From Deltaproteobacteria bacterium (GTDB lineage Bacteria; Desulfobacterota; DSM-4660; Desulfatiglandales; HGW-15), in contig JAGUZM010000404.1 in the NCBI GenBank assembly GCA_020060805.1, forward strand, positions 1-21,549: 21,549 bases of DNA. Direction: 5' to 3'. Below, piece by piece: positions 3,295 through 21,549 of the stretch (its first letter is position 1; each line of letters begins with the position of its first letter). The notes under the pieces are model-generated. The model saw nothing but the letters and a program-made list of their open reading frames with translations, did not search any database and was not told where the DNA came from. Position numbers and translations under genes: made by a program.

Positions 3295-4119
3295 ATGGAA
3301 AGGAGGAGCGATTTCCTGTTGGCCGGCAAAACCATCCCATTCCCACAGCGGTCCACCGCCCAGGATATCATCCTGTTCGCCGTTGTGCTGGCGATAGCCA
3401 CCTGGGTCATGGTCCAGGGCACAACGCATCTCGGGTATCACTGGCAATGGTACAGGGTGCCCCAGTACCTCTTTACCCTGGAGGAGGGGCATTTTCGTCC
3501 GGGGCCGCTGCTGCAGGGGCTGATGGTGACTCTCAGGATTAGCGCTTTCAGTCTCCTCTTGACCCTTGCCTTCGGCCTGGTCACCGCACTGCTCCGGATA
3601 TCGAGTTCTTTCCTGGGCAGGACCTTGGCCCGGGGATACCTGGAAGTGATTCGAAACACCCCCCTTCTGGTGCAGCTTTTTGTCATCTATTTTGTCCTGT
3701 CGCCGATTCTCGACATCAGCCGCTTCGCCTCAGCCGTTCTCGCTCTCAGCCTGTTTGAAGGGGCTTACGCTTCGGAGATCTTCAGGGCCGGCATTCTCTC
3801 CATCCAGAGGGGTCAATGGGAGGCAGCGTACAGCCTCGGCCTCGGGAGCCTGAGCACGTACCGGCTGGTGATTCTCCCCCAGGCGGTGCGTCGTATTCTT
3901 CCTCCCCTGACGAGCCAGGCCATATCGCTCGTGAAAGACTCCGCCCTGGTGAGCACCATAGCGGTCTATGATCTGACCATGCGGGGCCAAGAGATTATCG
4001 CGGAGACTTATCTCGCTTTCGAGCTTTGGTTCACTGTCGCCGCGATGTACCTCTTCATCACCGTGACCCTTTCCATGGTGGTCCACAGGATGGAGGGGAG
4101 ACTGAAAGTGAAAACATAA
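3295..4119 (+). CDS. Polar amino-acid ABC transporter permease (HisM/GlnP family)
   Basis: Multiple TM segments and the 'GLGSLSTYRLVILPQAVRRILPPLTSQAISLVKDSALVSTI' EAA-loop signature. Start ambiguous: GTG 3172 (track) or ATG 3295. Confidence 0.85.
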   Translation: MERRSDFLLAGKTIPFPQRSTAQDIILFAVVLAIATWVMVQGTTHLGYHWQWYRVPQYLFTLEEGHFRPGPLLQGLMVTLRISAFSLLLTLAFGLVTALLRISSSFLGRTLARGYLEVIRNTPLLVQLFVIYFVLSPILDISRFASAVLALSLFEGAYASEIFRAGILSIQRGQWEAAYSLGLGSLSTYRLVILPQAVRRILPPLTSQAISLVKDSALVSTIAVYDLTMRGQEIIAETYLAFELWFTVAAMYLFITVTLSMVVHRMEGRLKVKT

Positions 4120-13332: not shown

Positions 13333-13349
13333 GCGGCGAAGTGTCCTGT

Positions 13350-13393
13350 CAAAAGTAGTGAGGTTTGCGAACAAAAGTAGTGAGGTTTGCGAA
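13350..13393. repeat. Two tandem perfect 22-bp repeats, candidate transposase end-binding sites (R1/R2-like)
   Basis: CAAAAGTAGTGAGGTTTGCGAA at 13350-13371 and again at 13372-13393. Confidence 0.8.
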
Positions 13394-13464
13394 AAGCACA
13401 GGAAATAAAAATCCTGTCCGATTTGGAGTTCAATCGGTCAGGTTTTGAGCCTCTGAAAAGGCCA

Positions 13465-13953
13465 TCAAACTACGGCATTAGAACCCCTTTCTGCCTGTAG
13501 ATGAGTCTTCAAAACGTAAAGGATCTGGACCTCCAAAGGCCTCATTTCTTCTTCACTGAGCGCCCGGATCTGGGCGAAAAGATCAGGATAAAGCTTAAAG
13601 TTTATGATTACCTCCAAATCGGGCCGTGGCTGCATTTTCTCAGGGCGGTCCTTACTAACCTTCACCTTTTTCCCTGTTCCCCTGGAGGCCAACGTCTTGC
13701 GCTTTAAGCGCATGCACTCGGAACACAAACGGTGCGAAGGAGTGATCGTCTGCCGTTGCTCGCACTCTTCACATAATCTGACCGGCTTCTCCTCCATATT
13801 GCTTTGCCCTCGTCTTAGTTCAACCACAAACGGATCTTCTTCACGCTCTCTTTCTACTCTCTCCCCACAGCTTTCGCATCTTAGTGACCTTGTTCTTCCA
13901 TGAACCAATCTACTCAGGCAGGCCGAATAGTGAACACACTCAGGATCGCGCAT
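13465..13953 (-). CDS. Phage-associated protein with several CxxC zinc-binding pairs
   Basis: 162 aa: 'RCESCGERVE', 'RLCEECEQRQTITPSHRLCSECMRLKRK', plus an N-terminal 'ECVHYSAC'. Confidence 0.5.
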   Translation of the reverse strand: MRDPECVHYSACLSRLVHGRTRSLRCESCGERVEREREEDPFVVELRRGQSNMEEKPVRLCEECEQRQTITPSHRLCSECMRLKRKTLASRGTGKKVKVSKDRPEKMQPRPDLEVIINFKLYPDLFAQIRALSEEEMRPLEVQILYVLKTHLQAERGSNAVV

Positions 13954-13976
13954 TTCAAAAGACTCGGCAAATCGAA

Positions 13977-15875
13977 CTAGACCAACTTAGCCTCCCTCAA
14001 CTCTACCAATATCCGGCTGCGACCATATTTGATTGCGCTGGCGAGGCCTTCATCGATTCGGCGTATAAGGTCTTCACTGCCTCCACCGGCGATATTAATG
14101 CTTCCAACGTCGAAATTCAAAATCATCCCGGCTGCCCCGCGCCCCATAGCCGCACCGCCGCTCACACCCTTCAGAACTTCGAACTGGGCTTCAAGAAGTT
14201 GCTTGCTTAGACCGTAGGCCTCTTTTTCTCCAGCGCCCGCATACATCCTGTAAGTCGTCACGTCGGTGAGAGGCCCGAAATCCCTGATCGCCCTGATCGT
14301 CGCCTGCATCGATGCTGTGAGGCTCGCTACTCCGGTAAGGTCGAGGGCATCCTGTATGACGCCACCTACACCCCGAAGGTCGTCCATCATTTCCTGTATC
14401 CCCACGGCCCAGGGCTTTGCAGGAGATTTCTTAATTTGAGGCTCGAACACGAAAGGATTCCGGCCCTCCTCCGCCGCCATGTAGTCAAAAAATTGGGCTG
14501 TACTCTGTGTCGCCTGAGCGATGCTCTCGCTTGCGTTTTGAGCAGCCTCCTGGATCGAATTGATAGTATCGACCACCTTCTCAGCGGCTGCCGAATAAGA
14601 TCCAGGCTGTGAAATAGGCATTCTCACAAAAGGACCTCCGGTCTCCGATGTGCTTTCTATCCCAGAAAGAAGCCTCTTCAGTTCAGGGAAATTGGAAAAC
14701 GCATACTCGCTCAAGCTCAGCTTTCCTGCCGCTACCGCCTGTGCTCCCTTGACCGAATTCTGTACTGCCTCGATGAGATGAAGTCCTGCTCCAAAAACAG
14801 CAAGCCCTTTTTTGCCGAATACGATTGCTGCTACAACTCCTCCCTCCTGAATCCACCCAGGAAGCGATTGAAACGTTTTATAAAGCTCTTCGCCTTTCGT
14901 TATTATTTTCGGCAGATACCTATCCGCGATGTCCGCCAATGAACCCACCGTCCTCACCAATCCCTTCGCCAAATCCAAGATCTCGTCAGCAGTCTTTTTT
15001 GCCCACTCTTGAAGTTTCCCTTCCGAATGAAGTTTATCCACCCGATCCACAACGCCTGCGAGGAAGGTTTCTAGTGACTTCATGACACCGGATTTCATCA
15101 CGAGGCGCTCAAACTCAGTCCAGTAGCTTTTGAGGCTCTCGGTCATTCCCGACCACGTCTTTTGTATCTTCTCTGACTGTCCACCGTAACGCTCCTGCAG
15201 ACCTTCGAATATTGCCTGCACTGCCGCCTTTGCGTTCAGGCTCGACGTCTCCACCTCGCCGAATTTCTTTTTTAGAATGTCGAACACCGGGACACCACGC
15301 TCTGCGAGCTGCATCAGCTCTTCTGCGCTCACCTTTCCTTTCGTGGCAATTTGCGCGAGAGCCCTGGCGATGCCCTGTAAAGTCTCTTCCGTGCCGCCCA
15401 ATGCGCTCATCGTATCGACAAGAATCGTCATCTGCTTAGTGGTTGGATCAAGCCCCATCGCCTTCATCATGATGAAGGTCTCAACCGCCTTCTGGGTATT
15501 CACAGGCATTTTGAGAGCCCACTCATTTAGCATCCTGAAGGTTTCTTCACCTTTCCCTTTTGTAAGAGTGTCAAGGCTGAGCGTCATCTTGTCGAACGAA
15601 GCAGCCGTGTTTACAAAACCAGAGGCAATCCGTTCTAGACGCCATCCCACAAAGGCCGTGGCCGCTATAGTTTTAAGGTTCACAAGCGACTTCCTGACTT
15701 CGCCGATCCTGCCCTTCACACCATCAAAGAGATTCTGGACCCGTTGCAGCCCAGGAGCGGCGCTTGTCCCGACCCCGGAAAGGTTCTTCGATGCGCCGTC
15801 GGTAAACTTCTTGATGTCAGCAAGGGCCTTGTCCACAGCGGCTTTCACGATGATCTCGACCGTATTCTCAGGCAT
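13977..15875 (-). CDS. Phage tail tape measure protein
   Basis: 632 aa. 'LVDTMSALGGTEETLQGIARALAQIATKGKVSAEELMQLAERGVPVFDILKKKFG' is the characteristic tape-measure N-terminal domain. Helical/hydrophobic body. Confidence 0.88.
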   Translation of the reverse strand: MPENTVEIIVKAAVDKALADIKKFTDGASKNLSGVGTSAAPGLQRVQNLFDGVKGRIGEVRKSLVNLKTIAATAFVGWRLERIASGFVNTAASFDKMTLSLDTLTKGKGEETFRMLNEWALKMPVNTQKAVETFIMMKAMGLDPTTKQMTILVDTMSALGGTEETLQGIARALAQIATKGKVSAEELMQLAERGVPVFDILKKKFGEVETSSLNAKAAVQAIFEGLQERYGGQSEKIQKTWSGMTESLKSYWTEFERLVMKSGVMKSLETFLAGVVDRVDKLHSEGKLQEWAKKTADEILDLAKGLVRTVGSLADIADRYLPKIITKGEELYKTFQSLPGWIQEGGVVAAIVFGKKGLAVFGAGLHLIEAVQNSVKGAQAVAAGKLSLSEYAFSNFPELKRLLSGIESTSETGGPFVRMPISQPGSYSAAAEKVVDTINSIQEAAQNASESIAQATQSTAQFFDYMAAEEGRNPFVFEPQIKKSPAKPWAVGIQEMMDDLRGVGGVIQDALDLTGVASLTASMQATIRAIRDFGPLTDVTTYRMYAGAGEKEAYGLSKQLLEAQFEVLKGVSGGAAMGRGAAGMILNFDVGSINIAGGGSEDLIRRIDEGLASAIKYGRSRILVELREAKLV

Positions 15876-15901
15876 CTTTTATCCTCCCCTTCTTCCCTCA
15901 T

Positions 15902-16267
15902 TCAGAGTGGCTTGTAACATCCTCTCACCCTTCTTCTCATGCACAGGCTACAGATATACCACTCGTTATTAAGCTCTTGCCCATCCATAATTCCGAGCAT
16001 CTCAAAAGCCCATCTATCCGCCGCCAACTCTTCCGCCTCATCTGGCCCATCGAACTTGTTAATGAGAACGTGCTTTATTTCGTGGAACAGAACGAAAAAA
16101 GCTAAATATGGGCACTTCAGGTTGTGTGGAGAGATGAGGATTCGGAAACTGCCGTCGCGGAATCTGTGCGCTTCCCCGGCATGATTGTTTTCTAGGTCGC
16201 AGACCATCACGTATCTGATACTTTGGCAATGGTCTTTTGCAATAGAAGTCAGGAAGTCATTTATCAT
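15902..16267 (-). CDS. ImmA/IrrE-like (M78) metallopeptidase domain protein
   Basis: 'YLAFFVLFHEIKHVLINKFDGPDEAEELAADRWAFEMLGI' has HExxH followed by the downstream E..AD..A helix. Confidence 0.7.
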   Translation of the reverse strand: MINDFLTSIAKDHCQSIRYVMVCDLENNHAGEAHRFRDGSFRILISPHNLKCPYLAFFVLFHEIKHVLINKFDGPDEAEELAADRWAFEMLGIMDGQELNNEWYICSLCMRRRVRGCYKPL

Positions 16268-16350
16268 CGATCACCCTTTCTTTGTAGAAGGAGGGCCTGA
16301 GCGGGAAAGAAGGAGGAAACCCGCTCAGGCCAGCACATGGCTGCGACGTG

Positions 16351-17526
16351 CTATGAGACCACGGACTTGTAAGCTGATCGGTATTCGACCAAGGCTCCTT
16401 GATACTCGTGCCTGACCTTGTAGAGCCACGCATCCCCTTTAAATGCAGCCTCGCTCAGTGAGTCATCAACGATGATTTCCGGTTCCTCTCGCCCGTTCAG
16501 ATAAGACATTTCGATGCAACCGACATCCTCAACAGGGCGAATGATGCCCCAATCATTCGTGTCGCTTAAGAAGGAGATGATTGCGATTCGCTCATTCTTC
16601 TCCCCGAAGAGGCCGCGAACTGAGTTTATGGTTTTGGTTGTCAGATCATTTCCCGTGTAATAAGAATCGAGTTGGTTGACGCGCACAGCCGTATCCCAGA
16701 GTGAAAGCGGCACAGCAAGCCACCATTTGCCGCCGAGATTGATCCCTATCTTTTCGTTGCTCGGCGAACCCTCGGTCATGTCGCCCAAGGCGCCAACACC
16801 CGTAACCACGGCTGCGATTGAAAGCGCCCCAGATCCAAGGTTCCCATGCCCTCCGGTAAACCAGGCCGTTCCATCCGAACAATTTGCGTTGGAGGTGAAA
16901 AAACTCCAAACGTGTTTAGCATGCGTCCTTCTAGCAGCCCTCGCTACACGGTTAAGGAGTGCTCGCACAAGCCCGATGTTCTCGTTTATCATGCATATTC
17001 TTGTAATCTTAATAACCAGGCCTCGGGTAGTGATTGAGTAGGAAGCCTGTTCATCCCCAAAAGGCGCTATTGCGCCATAATCAGCCGCTTCCGGGTCAAC
17101 GGTCGGGATATCGCTCAAATATCCGAACCTCACAGCCTTAATGCTTCTGAAGTCTTTAGCGGATCGCTTTAAGCCGATCAGGGCGGCCTCATGGAAATCA
17201 ATATCAGCGTACTCTTTGGCCAACCCGACGTGGAGAGCGTTTTGCAATGCGTAGTCAAAGCTGGAGGAGTTGAAATCCTGGCATGATCGAAGATCCGCGT
17301 CCACCCGGTTTGAGTAGAATAACCCCCGCATTTCTACGTCGCCGGTGAAAAACTCATACGCAGGCCGCAAACCAGCGAAGGCAGGTATACCGTTGGAATC
17401 GAACCAGGGATTAATGAGCTTGGTGAGAGCTGCCCTGGCTTTGTCGAGCGCCGTCCGGCCCACTTCGAGCGATGAGTAATACACAGTCCGTTCAATGTCC
17501 CTCAAAAGTTTTTCCTTGCTGTCCAT
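16351..17526 (-). CDS. Major capsid/head subunit-like protein (Mu-like prophage type)
   Basis: 391 aa. 'FFTGDVEMRGLFYSNRVDADLRSCQDFNSSSFDYALQNALHVGLAKEYADIDFHEAALIGLKRSAKDFRSIKAVRFGYLSDIPTVDPEAADYGAIAPFGDEQASYSITTRGLVIKITRICMINENIGLVRALLNRVARAARRTHAKHVWSFF' resembles C-terminal head-protein domains seen in Mu-like prophages. Confidence 0.6.
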   Translation of the reverse strand: MDSKEKLLRDIERTVYYSSLEVGRTALDKARAALTKLINPWFDSNGIPAFAGLRPAYEFFTGDVEMRGLFYSNRVDADLRSCQDFNSSSFDYALQNALHVGLAKEYADIDFHEAALIGLKRSAKDFRSIKAVRFGYLSDIPTVDPEAADYGAIAPFGDEQASYSITTRGLVIKITRICMINENIGLVRALLNRVARAARRTHAKHVWSFFTSNANCSDGTAWFTGGHGNLGSGALSIAAVVTGVGALGDMTEGSPSNEKIGINLGGKWWLAVPLSLWDTAVRVNQLDSYYTGNDLTTKTINSVRGLFGEKNERIAIISFLSDTNDWGIIRPVEDVGCIEMSYLNGREEPEIIVDDSLSEAAFKGDAWLYKVRHEYQGALVEYRSAYKSVVS

Positions 17527-17578
17527 TTTAGTCCTCCTGCGTGGCCTACAAACCGACCACGGTGATATTTAATGTCAC

Positions 17579-17890
17579 TTATTGCTTCGCTTGATCGGCC
17601 CTAGCTTCACCGGATATTCGCACAGGCTCGGATCTCGCCTCCGCATCCCTCGGCCTTCTTTGGCCCAACTTTGAATCCCAGATCATTTCCTGCTTTGGGG
17701 GAATGCCCGTTTTCTGAACGTCTGTTAACTTGACAGATGCAGGCGCTCCCTTCTTATGGCGGATCTTTGCCCCTCCGTGCGTAACGATCACGATTTCGCC
17801 TGTAGTCTCATCAAACCTTTGAGCGAATACATGTTCCTCTCGAAGGCCATAGACCTTCAGCGTCTCTTGGAATCCTTTTTCATCTCTCAT
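17579..17890 (-). CDS. Hypothetical protein in Mu-like element
   Basis: 103-aa ORF in consistent orientation and spacing between neighbouring element genes. Confidence 0.5.
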   Translation of the reverse strand: MRDEKGFQETLKVYGLREEHVFAQRFDETTGEIVIVTHGGAKIRHKKGAPASVKLTDVQKTGIPPKQEMIWDSKLGQRRPRDAEARSEPVRISGEARADQAKQ

Positions 17891-17895
17891 TTTCC

Positions 17896-18162
17896 CTATA
17901 CCCCCTCGATCTCAAATTTGATGGTGTATTCTCGTCCTCTCGCTGTCATGAACTGAAGAATTGCCATCCGGTTCAGCATGAGTATCTCTCCACGTTTCCC
18001 CATTACGTTGTATTCGATCGTAATCCCTTTTCGTAAATCAACATCCAGCCGGATAGGATACGATTTCTTAATGCCATTAGTGGTAACGTGCAAAATCGCC
18101 CTCGGGTAAGAGTCAAGAAGCGCCAGAATCTCCTCCAATTCTGTTTGCGTATACTCGTCCAT
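17896..18162 (-). CDS. Hypothetical protein in Mu-like element
   Basis: MDEYTQTELEEILALLDSYPRAILHVTTNGIKKSYPIRLDVD... from ATG 18162 with SD GGGAGGAAG. The track start at 18186 is TTG within the hairpin arm. Confidence 0.6.
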   Translation of the reverse strand: MDEYTQTELEEILALLDSYPRAILHVTTNGIKKSYPIRLDVDLRKGITIEYNVMGKRGEILMLNRMAILQFMTARGREYTIKFEIEGV

Positions 18163-18177
18163 CTTCCTCCCAACAAA

Positions 18178-18283
18178 AAAGCCCAATTGTGCGTGAGATC
18201 CCCTTCGGGGACTTCCTGAGAACCCCTCCGAGGATTTTCTGAGATCCTGCCCAAGGACCTCATGACCGCAACAATTGGGCTTT
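18178..18283 (-). ncRNA. Candidate structured RNA or attenuator: three 23-nt hairpin repeats enclosed by a 13-bp stem
   Basis: Outer arms AAAGCCCAATTGT/ACAATTGGGCTTT (18178-18190/18271-18283). Units on the minus strand: GGTCCTTGGGCAGGATCTCAGAA, AATCCTCGGAGGGGTTCTCAGGA, AGTCCCCGAAGGGGATCTCACGC. T6 tract after the 3' arm, then SD. Confidence 0.65.
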
Positions 18284-18347
18284 ACTTTACGACTAAACTA
18301 CCCGGCAACTGCAGACCGTCAGCTACCGACCACAACACAGTTAAACT

Positions 18348-18572
18348 TTACTCGCGACCATGTCCCTCCACTTCCGCGACCATGTCCCTCCACTTCTGAA
18401 GTTCTGAGACTATGCCGGTGAACTCCCACAAAAACCAGCTTGCCTCTCTGTTCGCTTTCATGACCCGCTTATAGTCGAACAATGGAATGCTATCCACTTT
18501 TGCACGCAACTCATCTAACCACGCGGGATTGACATACCTAAATTTCTCGCCTCTGGGCCTCTTCGTTTTCAT
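18348..18572 (-). CDS. Small hypothetical protein in Mu-like element
   Basis: 74 aa, MKTKRPRGEKFRYVNPAWLDELRAKVDSIPLFDYKRVMKANREASWFLWEFTG..., 4 bp after the stop of the upstream wHTH gene. Confidence 0.55.
   Translation of the reverse strand: MKTKRPRGEKFRYVNPAWLDELRAKVDSIPLFDYKRVMKANREASWFLWEFTGIVSELQKWRDMVAEVEGHGRE
18353..18396. repeat. Perfect tandem duplication of 22 bp at the 3' end of the 74-aa ORF
   Basis: CGCGACCATGTCCCTCCACTTC at 18353-18374 and 18375-18396. Confidence 0.95.
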
Positions 18573-18576
18573 ATTA

Positions 18577-19038
18577 TCACCTCCTTTCTTTTCGATTTTT
18601 CCAGCTCTCCAGCACCGGGTGTTCCAAGGGGGCTTTCTCAGGCTCGATCAGGATATAGCAGCCCTCGCTATACTTCCGTGAAGTCGAGATAGATCTAATG
18701 ATCCCCTTTTGCTCCAAGAACCGTAAGTATTTGTGAGCATGGCTTCTAGAAGCACCGCTCAAAAGCACGAGATCTCTCCAGGTAAACCGACCCTTGATTA
18801 TGATCGCCCGCCACATTTTTTCGGTCATGGAGAAGGGGCGTTGTCTCATCTTGTATCGGAAAATCCCCGGCTGGACGGAAACGATCTCGCCGGTCTTCTT
18901 TAAGCCTTTCAAACCGCCCTTGAGCCTCGCCTTTTCAGCATAGCTACGGATGCAGAGGCGGTCAGCGAGATCATGGATCGTGAACTGAACCAACTCGACG
19001 GCTGCCTCTCGAATTTGTTTAGCGAGCTTCTGCCCCAT
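18577..19038 (-). CDS. Winged-helix/HTH DNA-binding protein in Mu-like transposition module
   Basis: 'FTIHDLADRLCIRSYAEKARLKGGLKGLKKTGEIVSVQPGIFRYK' and 'FTWRDLVLLSGASRSHAHKYLRFLEQKGII' look like two wHTH-type segments. Start overlaps the MuB-like gene by 1 nt. Confidence 0.6.
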   Translation of the reverse strand: MGQKLAKQIREAAVELVQFTIHDLADRLCIRSYAEKARLKGGLKGLKKTGEIVSVQPGIFRYKMRQRPFSMTEKMWRAIIIKGRFTWRDLVLLSGASRSHAHKYLRFLEQKGIIRSISTSRKYSEGCYILIEPEKAPLEHPVLESWKNRKERR

Positions 19039-19814
19039 TACGCAACCGCCGCCAACGCTGGTTTTTGATCGCTTCCGCCGTTCAGGATCTCCCCCAACTG
19101 CTCAGGATTCGGCATGCCCTTTGTAACCTCTTTGACCATCTTCGTGCTCACTTCGGCTTTGTTGTTTATTAGACACACCTTTTCGAGACGAACCAATAAA
19201 GCATTCACCAGCCTGAAGTCCCCCAAGGTGATTGTTCTGATCAAGCCTCCCACTTCGGCGTCACACTTCAACCCGCAGAGTTCTTTGGCAATGCCCTGAA
19301 TGTCTTTAGCGCTCAGCGGAGAAAACTCAACGGCTTCCGTGATCCGTGAAAAGAAGTTCCCCAACTCGTTTCTCTGCAAGCTGTTATAGATGCTTTCCTG
19401 GCCGACCAAAACAATCGGGACTTTGCTGATATCCGCAAGGTCTCGAACGGTCTCAACGAGAAGAGATTTGCGAACCACCCTGTCAGCCTCGTCTATAAAG
19501 AACACCACGCCGTGCTTTCGAAGTGTTCGGACAAGCTCCCTCAAATTCTCTTTAACGGTCCTGACCGGCTGAACTCGAAAGGCTAAAAGCATGTCTTCAA
19601 GCATCATACACAGCGACCGGGTCCAAGCTGCGACCGCCCGGCAGTGGAAACTTGGATAGTTGGAACAATACCACTCCGTGAAAGAGCTTTTCCCTAATCC
19701 GGGCCGCCCATAGAGAAGGCCTATGCGGTCAATGCGAGAACCTTTGTCAATCAAGGCTTTGACCATCATGAAAGCCTTACTTACGCTCTCAGTCATCACG
19801 AATTTGTCACGCAT
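19038..19814 (-). CDS. MuB/TniB-like AAA ATPase (transposition target selector)
   Basis: Walker A 'GLLYGRPGLGKSS', Walker B 'VVFFIDEADRV', 'VPIVLVGQE', located directly downstream of a MuA-like transposase. Confidence 0.85.
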   Translation of the reverse strand: MRDKFVMTESVSKAFMMVKALIDKGSRIDRIGLLYGRPGLGKSSFTEWYCSNYPSFHCRAVAAWTRSLCMMLEDMLLAFRVQPVRTVKENLRELVRTLRKHGVVFFIDEADRVVRKSLLVETVRDLADISKVPIVLVGQESIYNSLQRNELGNFFSRITEAVEFSPLSAKDIQGIAKELCGLKCDAEVGGLIRTITLGDFRLVNALLVRLEKVCLINNKAEVSTKMVKEVTKGMPNPEQLGEILNGGSDQKPALAAVA

Positions 19815-21549
19815 TTGCTGCCTCCTCGTCCAATTGGCGTTGCAGATTTTGGGCGATCAGAGAATAGTGATCGTCCTCCTCAAAGGTCTTCATAAATCGG
19901 TGATCATCCAGGCTGAGGACTTCGCCATTCCTCTTCCTCCTCAAAAGCCATGCGTATTTTTCGTCTTGCTCTAGAAAGAGGCCTGATCCTTGCTCCTCAA
20001 CGGTCTTGATAGGTTCATGCAGGTTCGGCACTTCCACAACCTCAAATCTTTGCGGGAACACAAGAGGCTTCTTTTTCTTCGCGGCTTCGATCTGATTCAC
20101 GATCCCTGCCCCGGAAATATCATACTTGCTCAAAAGAGCCTTGTTGGTCTCTATCGTGGCGCGAAGCTCTTTAGCCCGTTGGCGCTTCGCAATCTTGATC
20201 TCTTTGGGAGTGAGATCGCGCCGAGTCATATCCTCAGCCCGACAAACACGTTTCCCCTTAAAATAAACGAGCACGGACGATGCATCGTTATCGTCAATTC
20301 TGAGCACAACCCTGCTTCCTTCTGGGGGCAGCTTCCGATGGAAATATCTACCACCTTCATACATCACACATCCTCTGCGGACTATGCGTTCCTCTTCAGG
20401 CAGGATAAGAATATCCAGGTCCTCTTTATTGATTGTTCTCGCGATGAATCCGAGCTTCGCAAATCGTGCACGTGGTTTCTCCCCTGTCGAAGAATGAACC
20501 GTCTCGGCATATTTAAATGTAACCCAGTCATCGATCAGCTTCTGTAATTCCTCCCTTGAATATTCGACTTTGATTTCCTTTGGCCTATTGGCAAGAGTGT
20601 TCCCTGTGTATCCCGGAAGTCTCCTGAAAAGCCCTTCAGTCAAGGTCCGAAAAGCCCTTTCAATAAAGGGTTTCTCGACGGGTTGCCCGGGATGACAGAG
20701 ATGGTGCTTGGTCCCGACATGTTTAAAAAAGCCGCGAACGCGATTGCTTTTGAAACTTTTTCCCTGATCCGTCCTCGCAACCCCCGGAATGCCCCAACAG
20801 AGGATTGTATCTCTCAAAAAAACAGCCACGGAAAATGCGCTTTCCGGCATAAGCCGAAAACGAACTAGCCGGGAATAGACATCGATGCCGCCAATGATCT
20901 GAGACCGTTTTCCATCATTGGTCATAATGACGCAGTCCTCTTGTTGCCGTTCGGTCAATATATCCGCAAGGGTCGAATCAAGCTCCCATAACTGATTCGG
21001 TTCCGTTAGATTAGCATCCGCACACCCGAGAGCAGGTGTCATACTCCGATCACGCAGACCTTCTTGCCCCTCATGTTTCAGGATCAGGGCGGGAAAATTT
21101 TCTGCTCGGTAGTGCTTAGCGTAGTTTCGGACCTGGAAATATGAAGGCTGATCTTTTGCAGGAAGAAGAAGGCGGAGATCATCGTGGATATCTTGGAAGC
21201 GAATTTTGTAATTGTCCCAGATCAACTTCTCAATGAACCCGCGAACCTGCTCCGAAAGCTTGCAACCCCCATTATTGAAGCCCTCCAGGAGGCCATCTAA
21301 TCCGTTTTCTCGGTAAGCAGACTGCCAGCGATATAGAGTGGATTGACTGATCTTTGGTTTTCTTAGCCGAGCCCGGATCTCTTCGCCTAGAAATCCTTTG
21401 TTAAATTGGTGCAGAAATCTCTTCGCGATCTCCGTTCGTTTCAGGTCCTTCTTGTATTCTCGCTCGAAGGATTCAAATAAATGAAGAAGCTCGCTCTTCG
21501 CCTTTGCATATTCCCGATTTTGTTCTGAACTACCGTCCCATTTATTCAT
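19807..21549 (-). CDS. MuA/TniA-like DDE transposase (N-terminus may extend beyond window edge)
   Basis: HTH region 'ISQSTLYRWQSAYRENGLDGLL'. Integrase core 'PNQLWELDSTLADI...', 'WGIPGVARTDQGKSFKS', 'PFIERAFRTLTEGL'. C-terminal Mu-type beta-barrel region. 8-bp overlap with the B gene. Confidence 0.9.
   Translation of the reverse strand: MNKWDGSSEQNREYAKAKSELLHLFESFEREYKKDLKRTEIAKRFLHQFNKGFLGEEIRARLRKPKISQSTLYRWQSAYRENGLDGLLEGFNNGGCKLSEQVRGFIEKLIWDNYKIRFQDIHDDLRLLLPAKDQPSYFQVRNYAKHYRAENFPALILKHEGQEGLRDRSMTPALGCADANLTEPNQLWELDSTLADILTERQQEDCVIMTNDGKRSQIIGGIDVYSRLVRFRLMPESAFSVAVFLRDTILCWGIPGVARTDQGKSFKSNRVRGFFKHVGTKHHLCHPGQPVEKPFIERAFRTLTEGLFRRLPGYTGNTLANRPKEIKVEYSREELQKLIDDWVTFKYAETVHSSTGEKPRARFAKLGFIARTINKEDLDILILPEEERIVRRGCVMYEGGRYFHRKLPPEGSRVVLRIDDNDASSVLVYFKGKRVCRAEDMTRRDLTPKEIKIAKRQRAKELRATIETNKALLSKYDISGAGIVNQIEAAKKKKPLVFPQRFEVVEVPNLHEPIKTVEEQGSGLFLEQDEKYAWLLRRKRNGEVLSLDDHRFMKTFEEDDHYSLIAQNLQRQLDEEAANA

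Follow-up and report, generated by a model that had tools for sequence, protein, structure and literature searches.

To our knowledge, the well-studied phage satellites, namely P4, the phage-inducible chromosomal islands (PICIs) with the Staphylococcus aureus pathogenicity islands (SaPIs), the capsid-forming PICIs (cf-PICIs) and the PICI-like elements (PLE), all integrate by site-specific recombinases. In the P4/P2 and SaPI/80α pairs, the satellite has approximately 1/4–1/3 of the size of its helper. Engineered mini-Mu elements are packaged by helper Mu via the headful mechanism, starting from the left end. Here, we analyzed a stretch of 21,549 nucleotides from a Deltaproteobacteria bacterium (contig JAGUZM010000404.1), hereafter called the window, and found that the element at positions 13342–21549 belongs to a conserved family of Mu-type transposons, 9–14 kb in size, in which a capsid gene is retained. 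These compact elements show the same size ratio to their putative helper as the satellites mentioned above.

The compact elements share several traits with Mu and the Mu-like phages (D3112/B3/JBD30-type siphoviruses and ~40-kb metagenomic relatives): MuA and MuB on the left side, ends of the TG…CA form that carry repeats of the transposase site, a 5-bp target duplication, a GemA-like early gene, and an HK97-fold capsid of the gpT family with the gene for p103, a 103-aa protein, upstream. However, they are 9–14 kb long instead of 37–43 kb, and lack terminase, portal (with one exception), protease, scaffold, tail tube/sheath, baseplate, and lysis genes. Their capsid gene is the stand-alone C-terminal half of the fusion gene of the Mu-like phages, and they have in addition an M78-type peptidase, a Zn-ribbon/ribbon-helix-helix (RHH) protein and, in most cases, the int-alpA RNA. 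In a Leptospira paper, mini-Mu and mini-D3112 are described solely as engineered transposition tools, and a transposable-prophage survey dropped contigs under 35 kb (PMC8705779). We found no published description of MuA/MuB satellites or of a capsid-carrying mini-Mu, in a literature coverage that was incomplete, so an earlier description is possible.

Results

Gene content of the window element

The window element is a single unbroken gene row on the minus strand, whose open reading frames (ORFs) are all intact and closely packed (Table 1), with a G+C content of ~50% versus 55–59% in the flanking host genes. The gene order and the identities from MuA to the Zn-ribbon protein, proposed in an earlier note made from the sequence, were confirmed. 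The MuA-type transposase matched Mu-transpos_C (PF09299, 2e-10), rve (PF00665, 8e-9) and phrog_310 (4e-67), and D191, D196, D261 and E297 were invariant when it was aligned with its relatives, acidic residues from which a DDE triad is derivable. The MuB-type ATPase matched AAA_22 (5e-12), TniB (4e-7) and phrog_296, 'DNA transposition protein' (2.7e-37), and was recognized by a hidden Markov model (HMM) of compact-element MuB at 1.9e-77. The window therefore holds both the MuA-family transposase and the adjoining MuB-type ATPase of a Mu-type element, and the two genes overlap by 8 nt. A CRISPR-associated or Tn7-like transposon, considered because of the TniB/TnsC-like matches, was rejected, as the Mu-transpos_C domain, the Mu-type ends, the 5-bp target duplication and the phage relatives are all indicative of Mu.

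With the Pfam, PHROGs and NCBIfam profiles, genes for terminase, portal, protease, tail tube or baseplate could not be detected in the window element, and family HMMs found no TerL, TerS or portal in its six-frame translations. The complete virion set of a Mu-like phage (terminase, portal, protease/scaffold and tail) is not present in this element. These six-frame searches bore out the claim that packaging genes are absent from a locus with complete ORFs that follow each other closely on one strand.

The source contig runs just 43 bp past position 21549 (21,592 bp in total), and the left end of the element lies beyond it. Since the final base of the window is also the first of the MuA ORF, the N-terminus of the protein may be cut. 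The last 44 nt and the 22-bp end repeat had no match in metagenome or viral collections when used to recover the left end. A second assembly (L204) holds the same element and covers 3.5 kb of its interior.

Capsid protein and its partner p103

Whether the 391-aa protein has a capsid fold had been left as a question by the earlier note. The AlphaFold2 (AF2) model (predicted local distance difference test score, pLDDT, 86.8; predicted template modeling score, pTM, 0.82) and a fold search showed that it has the HK97 fold. Foldseek analysis of this model against the Protein Data Bank (PDB) gave 351 matches at E≤1e-3, and the 50 listed were all HK97-fold shell proteins, among them the Mu capsid (9jod), the cf-PICI EcCI2, encapsulins, and the capsid of RcGTA, the gene transfer agent of Rhodobacter capsulatus. 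The protein also matched PF25209 (Mu gpT / Phage_capsid_4; 7e-21) across profile positions 9–262 of 262, so the fold and a full-domain family match are found together, and it matched the NCBIfam model 'prohead protease/major capsid fusion' (2e-29) in the C-terminal part only.

An exact-protein look-up with the window capsid gave no match, and 117 homologues were found in a large protein collection; the closest were all ~390–420 aa long, and many were on 8–13 kb contigs. There was no close relative among GenBank phages, with 29% as the best identity to a phage capsid. When aligned, the stand-alone capsid starts at residue ~370–396 of the fusion protein and is collinear with it from there, lacking the protease and all or most of the coiled-coil scaffold and retaining ~85 residues before the HK97 core; it is equivalent to the C-terminal ~390 residues of the fusion. 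When PDB sequences were searched with a profile of the N-terminal half of this fusion, no match was significant. In a neighbour-joining tree built from 89 capsid-domain sequences, the stand-alone capsids formed one clade in 100 of 100 bootstraps; this clade was nested among the ~800-aa protease–scaffold–capsid fusions, and the window capsid was its deepest branch.

The p103 family was found in 70 loci, and its gene lies immediately upstream of the capsid gene, in the compact elements as well as in the full-size phages. The comparison of two compact elements, L001 and L196, gave dN/dS ratios of 0.05 (p103), 0.11 (capsid), 0.22 (M78 peptidase) and 0.20 (MuA), rough values because dS is close to saturation in this pair. 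By this sequence-based measure, the genes of the compact elements are under purifying selection.

Compact elements and full-size Mu-like phages

Approximately 110 loci were gathered by context look-ups and by scans of reference genomes and IMG/VR; in the reference genomes, a single-protein scan returned nothing, and an alignment-based scan recovered relatives. Gene maps and clustering divided these loci cleanly into two classes, full-size phages and compact elements. The first class has contigs of up to 39–43 kb with the order TerS–TerL–portal–MuF–p103–capsid–…–neck–tail–TMP (TMP, tape-measure protein), and in all of these the capsid forms the C-terminal portion of a fusion protein of 700–900 aa. 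The MuA-based scan of viral contigs and the capsid scan returned different contigs, and the left arm of one 39-kb relative was fetched directly; it contains a GemA-like gene as well as MuA and MuB, which matched the compact-element profiles at 3e-67 and 8e-87, respectively. The phylum of the window also has related Mu-like phages (L014, L017 and L025), and the window itself contains none. Anaerobic digesters and Mono Lake are among the habitats of the relatives.

The second class comprises at least 14 distinct elements, including the one in the window, with the plan (repressor/ner)–MuA–MuB–2–4 small genes–p103–stand-alone capsid–M78-type peptidase–(TMP)–Zn-ribbon–host DNA. Profile searches in six-frame translations detected no TerL, TerS or F3 in 14 compact elements, and a portal, a MuF and a neck protein in one of the 14 each; the p103 family HMM matched 10 of them. 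As to whether homologues always carry terminase, which had been asked earlier, the compact ones never do. Complete elements measured 8.9–13.6 kb against 39–43 kb for the full-size relatives and had no packaging machinery, as would be expected of phage satellites, which are much smaller than their helpers and encode replication/integration functions without a full set of virion genes.

The earlier note had left a choice between a recent deletion series with clean ORFs and a reduced capsid-encoding transposon (a satellite, a domesticated structure or a helper-dependent element). The former is refuted by the recurrence of the compact plan in at least 14 divergent elements, whose capsids are 44–54% identical to that of the window, and is also contradicted by the Mu-type ends, the 5-bp duplications, the monophyletic capsids, the dN/dS of 0.05–0.2 and the lineage-specific genes. 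The latter fits all the comparative evidence.

Some individual loci deserve a description. L001 and L196 occupy the same chromosomal site, between the genes for an RNA recognition motif (RRM) protein and ribonucleotide reductase, in related hosts. The two share 90–94% identity in the flanks and in the arm from the repressor to MuA, whereas the segment from MuB through the Zn-ribbon gene is 67–78% identical, a contrast indicating that the structural module was exchanged horizontally (mosaic replacement). The sole portal-like gene of a compact element (L009, 5043-6488) is split into ORFs of 351 and 124 aa beside a 613-aa TMP-like gene, which could be due to a frameshift, a sequencing error or decay of the gene. 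L016 looks intermediate in form, with a 530-aa capsid, a 736-aa MuA, a 402-aa TMP-like gene and ~13 kb between inverted repeats. In L027 (4227-13662, from a metagenome-assembled genome, MAG, of Desulfuromonadales), a 425-aa MuB-like gene lies beside a 570-aa ORF with no match to Pfam or to the MuA profile; both are ~1.5–2.8 kb upstream of a capsid gene that is fused (761-aa protease–capsid), with a PhageMin_Tail (TMP-like) gene of 570 aa behind it. This locus may represent a second, independent compact lineage.

Ends of the elements

The right end of the window element begins 9 bp past the stop codon of a host gene. It has TGT at 13342 and perfect 22-bp repeats (CAAAAGTAGTGAGGTTTGCGAA) at 13350–13371 and 13372–13393, for which the chance expectation is 0. 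These repeats are presumed to be MuA binding sites, and CGAAG (13337–13341), beside the end, would be the target duplication.

TG…CA termini with repeats could be seen at both ends in two relatives, and at the right end in the window. The element with the capsid P0004 (L200) is 8,906 bp long and has the 5-bp direct repeat CCTTG on each side; its inverted termini, TGTTGAGGGACATATGACTTTAGA and TGTAAGCGGCCATATGACTTTAGA, are identical at 19 of 24 positions, and its right end has two sites spaced by 22 bp. In L010 (13,632 bp), the termini are identical at 17 of 24 positions, and the 5-bp duplication is GCATG. The ends of both match the layout of the window: a terminal TGT, a pair of sites with a spacing of 22 bp and a core of the TTTGCGA type. 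The TG…CA inverted ends and the 5-bp target duplications mark L200 and L010 as units that insert and replicate through Mu-type transposition. The earlier note had proposed a search of other genomes for the same order with the same 22-bp ends; the compact plan was found again, and the ends of the window element could be compared at the right side only. No target duplications could be resolved for L001, L005, L012, L016, L036 and L196.

Several assemblies of the P0004 element have common flanks, and two independent short-read assemblies (L201 and L203) break precisely at the element terminus, …GCTTACA. A length of 8–13 kb is also common among the homologous contigs; such breaks are as expected for multi-copy elements or variable flanks. 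A copy of the 8.9-kb element from Mono Lake (L199, ~3360–3400) lacks 72 bp relative to positions 128–200 of L200, among them the TGT at the left terminus and the first of the transposase sites, with the flank unaltered, and this copy is probably immobilized. We also observed tRNA genes within ~100–150 bp of the ends in L010 (2793-2972), L016 (16765-16837) and L033 (5752-5836), a proximity that random insertion of a Mu-type transposon would not lead one to expect and that might reflect a preference for certain targets.

RNA elements upstream of the capsid block

The intergenic RNA of the window has a minimum free energy of −69.8 kcal/mol (z −4.76) and ends with a 13-bp closing stem followed by a U-run, immediately before the ribosome-binding site of the late (capsid) block. 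It had no Rfam match at E≤1 and is not the int-alpA RNA, because a covariance model built from the 15 compact-element copies scored only noise on it (12 bits). It is a putative terminator, antiterminator switch or small RNA.

The int-alpA RNA (Rfam RF02996) was detected in 15 compact elements with 39–56 bits, above the gathering score of 35.8, always on the coding strand and directly upstream of the capsid block; in several copies, it is followed by a hairpin with a U-run. It was found in none of seven full-size Mu-like phage loci. Its structure is backed by covariation: 95.6% of cells were paired, seven pairs showed compensatory changes, and 0 of 500 shuffles reached the observed values. The int-alpA RNA with a terminator in the relatives, and another structured RNA at the same place in the window, suggest that the late genes of the compact elements are controlled by termination or antitermination. 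With respect to a wider role of the RNA as a satellite marker, it is absent from P4, and a BLAST search of E. coli genomes with its consensus had no match. The compact elements may give biological context to this orphan motif.

Accessory proteins

The gene of the 121-aa peptidase directly follows the capsid gene. In its family, H62, E63, H66, E80 and four Cys of a C-terminal cluster are invariant, and the family HMM matched 12 of the 14 compact elements, to which the protein is specific. Against Pfam M78, the window protein gave an E of 0.019 and 15.2 bits, under the cut-off of 22 bits, and members of the family reached 24.5–35.8 bits. The HExxH region of the window protein showed weak local matches to Lit / Peptidase_U49 (NCBIfam, 7e-5), at the level of the motif only, and PF10463 is precomputed on many of the homologues, with the similarity to Lit/U49 again confined to the motif. 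Lit is a phage-exclusion protease that is activated by a phage capsid peptide, which lends some interest to the place of the peptidase gene next to that of the capsid.

The tape-measure-like protein matched PF20155 (TMP_3, 1.8e-17), phrog_973 (6e-38) and TIGR02675 (4.5e-11), and thus has a tape-measure domain, in a genomic context with no tail tube, chaperone, distal tail or baseplate genes. TMP-like genes recur before the capsid gene in L005 and L012 and after it in L009, L010, L016, L027 and the window, and they belong to different families.

In the Zn-ribbon protein, two Cys4 ribbons with conserved Cys ligands are joined to a basic linker and a C-terminal RHH-like domain. There were 37 homologues, none with a name, and the family HMM matched 9 of the 14 compact elements, to which the protein is specific. 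In the AF2 model (pLDDT 73), the C-terminal domain was modelled confidently, and a fold search gave a list dominated by the RHH proteins Arc, CopG and MatP with non-significant E-values. This protein is a probable DNA-binding regulator. Searches of PDB sequences with the family profiles of the M78-like and Zn-ribbon proteins gave no significant match.

The 153-aa winged-helix protein is a probable transcription regulator. The ATG of the 89-aa ORF is preceded by a ribosome-binding site (sequence in Table 1), and a TTG at 18186 would yield 96 aa; an independent gene call on L204 gave 88 aa for this ORF, and no homologues of it were found. The winged-helix, 74-aa and 89-aa proteins are unrelated to F7, F10, GemA and Neck, the small-gene families of other compact elements. 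A perfect 22-bp tandem duplication (18353–18396) is present within the 3' end of the 74-aa ORF. The inserted 22 bp shift the reading frame, and …MVASKV, the C-terminus predicted for the ancestor, becomes …MVAEVEGHGRE. This looks like a recent micro-duplication, and the length of the product is unchanged in L204.

Table 1. Positions of the annotated features in the window element and of the int-alpA RNA in related compact elements
Feature	Locus	Position	Strand	Basis
Right end, attR-type	window	13342..13393		5'-TGT (inward reading) and two perfect tandem 22-bp repeats
Zn-ribbon protein, 162 aa	window	13465..13953	-	two Cys4 zinc ribbons, family alignments
Tape-measure-like protein, 632 aa	window	13977..15875	-	TMP_3, phrog_973, TIGR02675
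HExxH metallopeptidase, probable M78 (ImmA/IrrE) type, 121 aa	window	15902..16267	-	invariant motif residues
Stand-alone HK97-fold major capsid protein, 391 aa	window	16351..17526	-	PF25209, AF2 model
p103, 103-aa capsid-gene partner	window	17579..17890	-	conserved family
89-aa ORF	window	17896..18165	-	ATG start after GGGAGGAAG
Structured intergenic RNA, 161 nt	window	18187..18347	-	folding energy
74-aa ORF	window	18348..18572	-	gene call
Winged-helix (wHTH) protein, 153 aa	window	18577..19038	-	phrog_2030 1.9e-9; weak Pfam wHTH matches
MuB-type AAA+ transposition ATPase, 258 aa	window	19038..19814	-	AAA_22, TniB, phrog_296
MuA-type DDE transposase, at least 580 aa	window	19807..21549	-	Mu-transpos_C, rve, phrog_310
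int-alpA RNA	L001	8995-9066	coding
int-alpA RNA	L005	7494-7563	coding
int-alpA RNA	L006	3625-3691	coding
int-alpA RNA	L007	4420-4492	coding
int-alpA RNA	L008	70-138	coding
int-alpA RNA	L009	255-322	coding
int-alpA RNA	L010	9470-9542	coding
int-alpA RNA	L012	7392-7461	coding
int-alpA RNA	L016	8854-8924	coding
int-alpA RNA	L033	3465-3534	coding
int-alpA RNA	L034	1244-1315	coding
int-alpA RNA	L036	5344-5411	coding
int-alpA RNA	L037	9568-9638	coding
int-alpA RNA	L196	9184-9255	coding
int-alpA RNA	L200	6161-6226	coding

Discussion

We lean, with modest confidence, towards the view that the window element is a transposable phage satellite, which would have its own, probably smaller head and take terminase, portal, protease and tail from a helper. 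Such an element would replicate by transposition during the lytic growth of a helper Mu-like phage, and the structured RNA/terminator before the capsid block would restrain the late genes until late signals arrive. The scaffold-less capsid protein and p103 would assemble on helper portals into a smaller shell, the headful terminase of the helper would fill this shell with one copy of the element instead of 39 kb of mostly host DNA, and helper tails would finish the particle. Satellite-specific control or processing may be the task of the M78-type peptidase and the Zn-ribbon/RHH protein, and the tape-measure-like protein might modify or exploit the tail of the helper or its DNA-entry step. When scaled from the 39–43 kb of a T=7 head, the calculated capacity of a T=3 head is ~11 kb and that of a T=4 head ~17 kb. 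These values bracket the 8.9–13.6 kb elements. A small head would avoid the ~30 kb of host DNA that are packaged with a mini-Mu in a full-size one.

Several points weigh against this interpretation. The helper was not identified, and the closest full-size capsids are at most ~49% identical; the long-read MAG CAWBOS01 has two compact elements, and the same scan found no full-size relative there. No packaging signal (pac site) or small terminase was recognized. We know of no satellite strategy that predicts a tape-measure gene without other tail genes. The shared chromosomal site of L001 and L196 in related hosts is also what a domesticated resident would show. Finally, the window copy is without the left end that a judgement of its mobility would require.

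A more far-reaching version, which we offer tentatively and as a whole, is that the compact elements would be the first satellites with Mu-type replicative transposition; that a small head would be achieved by means of a capsid paralogue devoid of scaffold and protease; that an RNA/terminator switch, formed by the int-alpA RNA in most members and by the other structured RNA in the window, would time the capsid operon to the late phase of the helper; and that the metallopeptidase and the TMP-like protein would be new hijacking tools.

We regard it as rather unlikely that the capsid gene is cargo for assembly interference or defence, with the scaffold-less capsid and, in some elements, TMP, neck, MuF or portal paralogues acting as dominant-negative subunits that poison superinfecting Mu-like phages. 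The host population would then be protected, and the element would spread only by transposition and by riding other vehicles. The structural repertoire agrees with this, since the isolated subset of genes that is retained (TMP, Neck, MuF or portal) differs from one compact element to the next, decoy-like rather than a coherent virion module, and the capsid gene comes without the protease and the scaffold required for normal maturation; the persistence at one chromosomal site in related hosts is also in line with it. Defences that act by inhibition of virion assembly have been documented (PMC10884400 and PMC11364771). However, all HK97 core features and p103 are strongly conserved (dN/dS 0.05–0.11), as would be expected of a working shell, the structural module is horizontally exchanged, and there was no convincing match to a PADLOC defence family. 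Moreover, known satellites pair interference with hijacking, so a satellite with such an activity stays compatible with these observations, and the two explanations can coexist.

Less probable is a self-sufficient shell, in which capsid and p103 would form a portal-less, encapsulin-like nanocompartment or a vehicle like a gene transfer agent (GTA), free of any helper. A capsid gene without portal or terminase is the encapsulin pattern, and encapsulins and the RcGTA capsid were indeed among the fold matches, but the profile matches of the protein are phage capsid families (PF25209, Mu gpT), it is nested inside phage sequences, and its gene has a peptidase and a TMP-like gene as neighbours, with no cargo enzyme and no cargo-loading peptide evident. 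DNA packaging would be impossible without terminase and portal, and the portal, neck, MuF or tape-measure gene of some elements fits only a tailed virion. A GTA of 13.6-kb packaging and unknown genetic basis, Dd1, has reportedly been found in Desulfobacterota, the phylum of the hosts, and is a lead only.

That the locus is a functionless, decaying Mu-like prophage, be it a deletion derivative (unique or recent) or an error of assembly, is very improbable, because the truncation of the window copy by the contig end, the fresh 22-bp duplication in the 74-aa ORF and the lost left terminus of L199 are set against a compact plan kept across capsid divergence to ~45% identity, intact boundaries with target duplications, lineage-specific conserved genes (M78, Zn, F7 and F10) and a conserved RNA, a monophyletic capsid clade under purifying selection, and two independent assemblies that hold the same element.

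If the compact elements are indeed transposable satellites, a MuA/MuB lineage would add transposition to the modes of replication and insertion of satellites and would be a natural counterpart to the laboratory mini-Mu vectors, with the truncated capsid paralogue as a very economical control of capsid size. Since Mu-type headful packaging takes flanking host DNA, gene transfer in little-studied anaerobes (Desulfobacterota and syntrophs) would also be indicated. Even if they are not satellites, a conserved transposon family that retains a working capsid gene calls for an explanation.

Among known systems, the cf-PICIs are also small chromosomal elements with their own HK97 capsid that take the remaining virion from a helper. 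They differ in having a tyrosine integrase and a full head set (portal, protease/scaffold, connectors and small terminase), and they borrow tails only, whereas the compact elements have MuA/MuB and essentially the capsid protein alone; profile searches found no integrase, portal, protease or TerS in the window element. P4 and the SaPIs are similar in the element-to-helper size ratio of ~1/3–1/4 and in a small head excluding the helper genome, which is predicted here. Nevertheless, their scaffolds (Sid in P4 and CpmA/B in SaPIs) remodel the helper capsid, while the compact element brings its own truncated capsid paralogue, and P4 has plasmid replication with a primase, Int integration and no int-alpA RNA. 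Polintons/Mavericks are alike in concept, as self-inserting elements with a DDE rve-type integrase/transposase, an ATPase, a capsid and a protease; this is an analogy only, given their unrelated double jelly-roll capsid, eukaryotic hosts and protein-primed replication by polymerase B. The engineered mini-Mu and mini-D3112 transpose with Mu ends and A/B genes, like the compact elements, but they are laboratory constructs without structural genes whose full-size heads contain ~30 kb of host DNA, a mismatch that the capsid gene of the natural elements could solve. By analogy, the window element may work like a cross of mini-Mu and a capsid-forming PICI.

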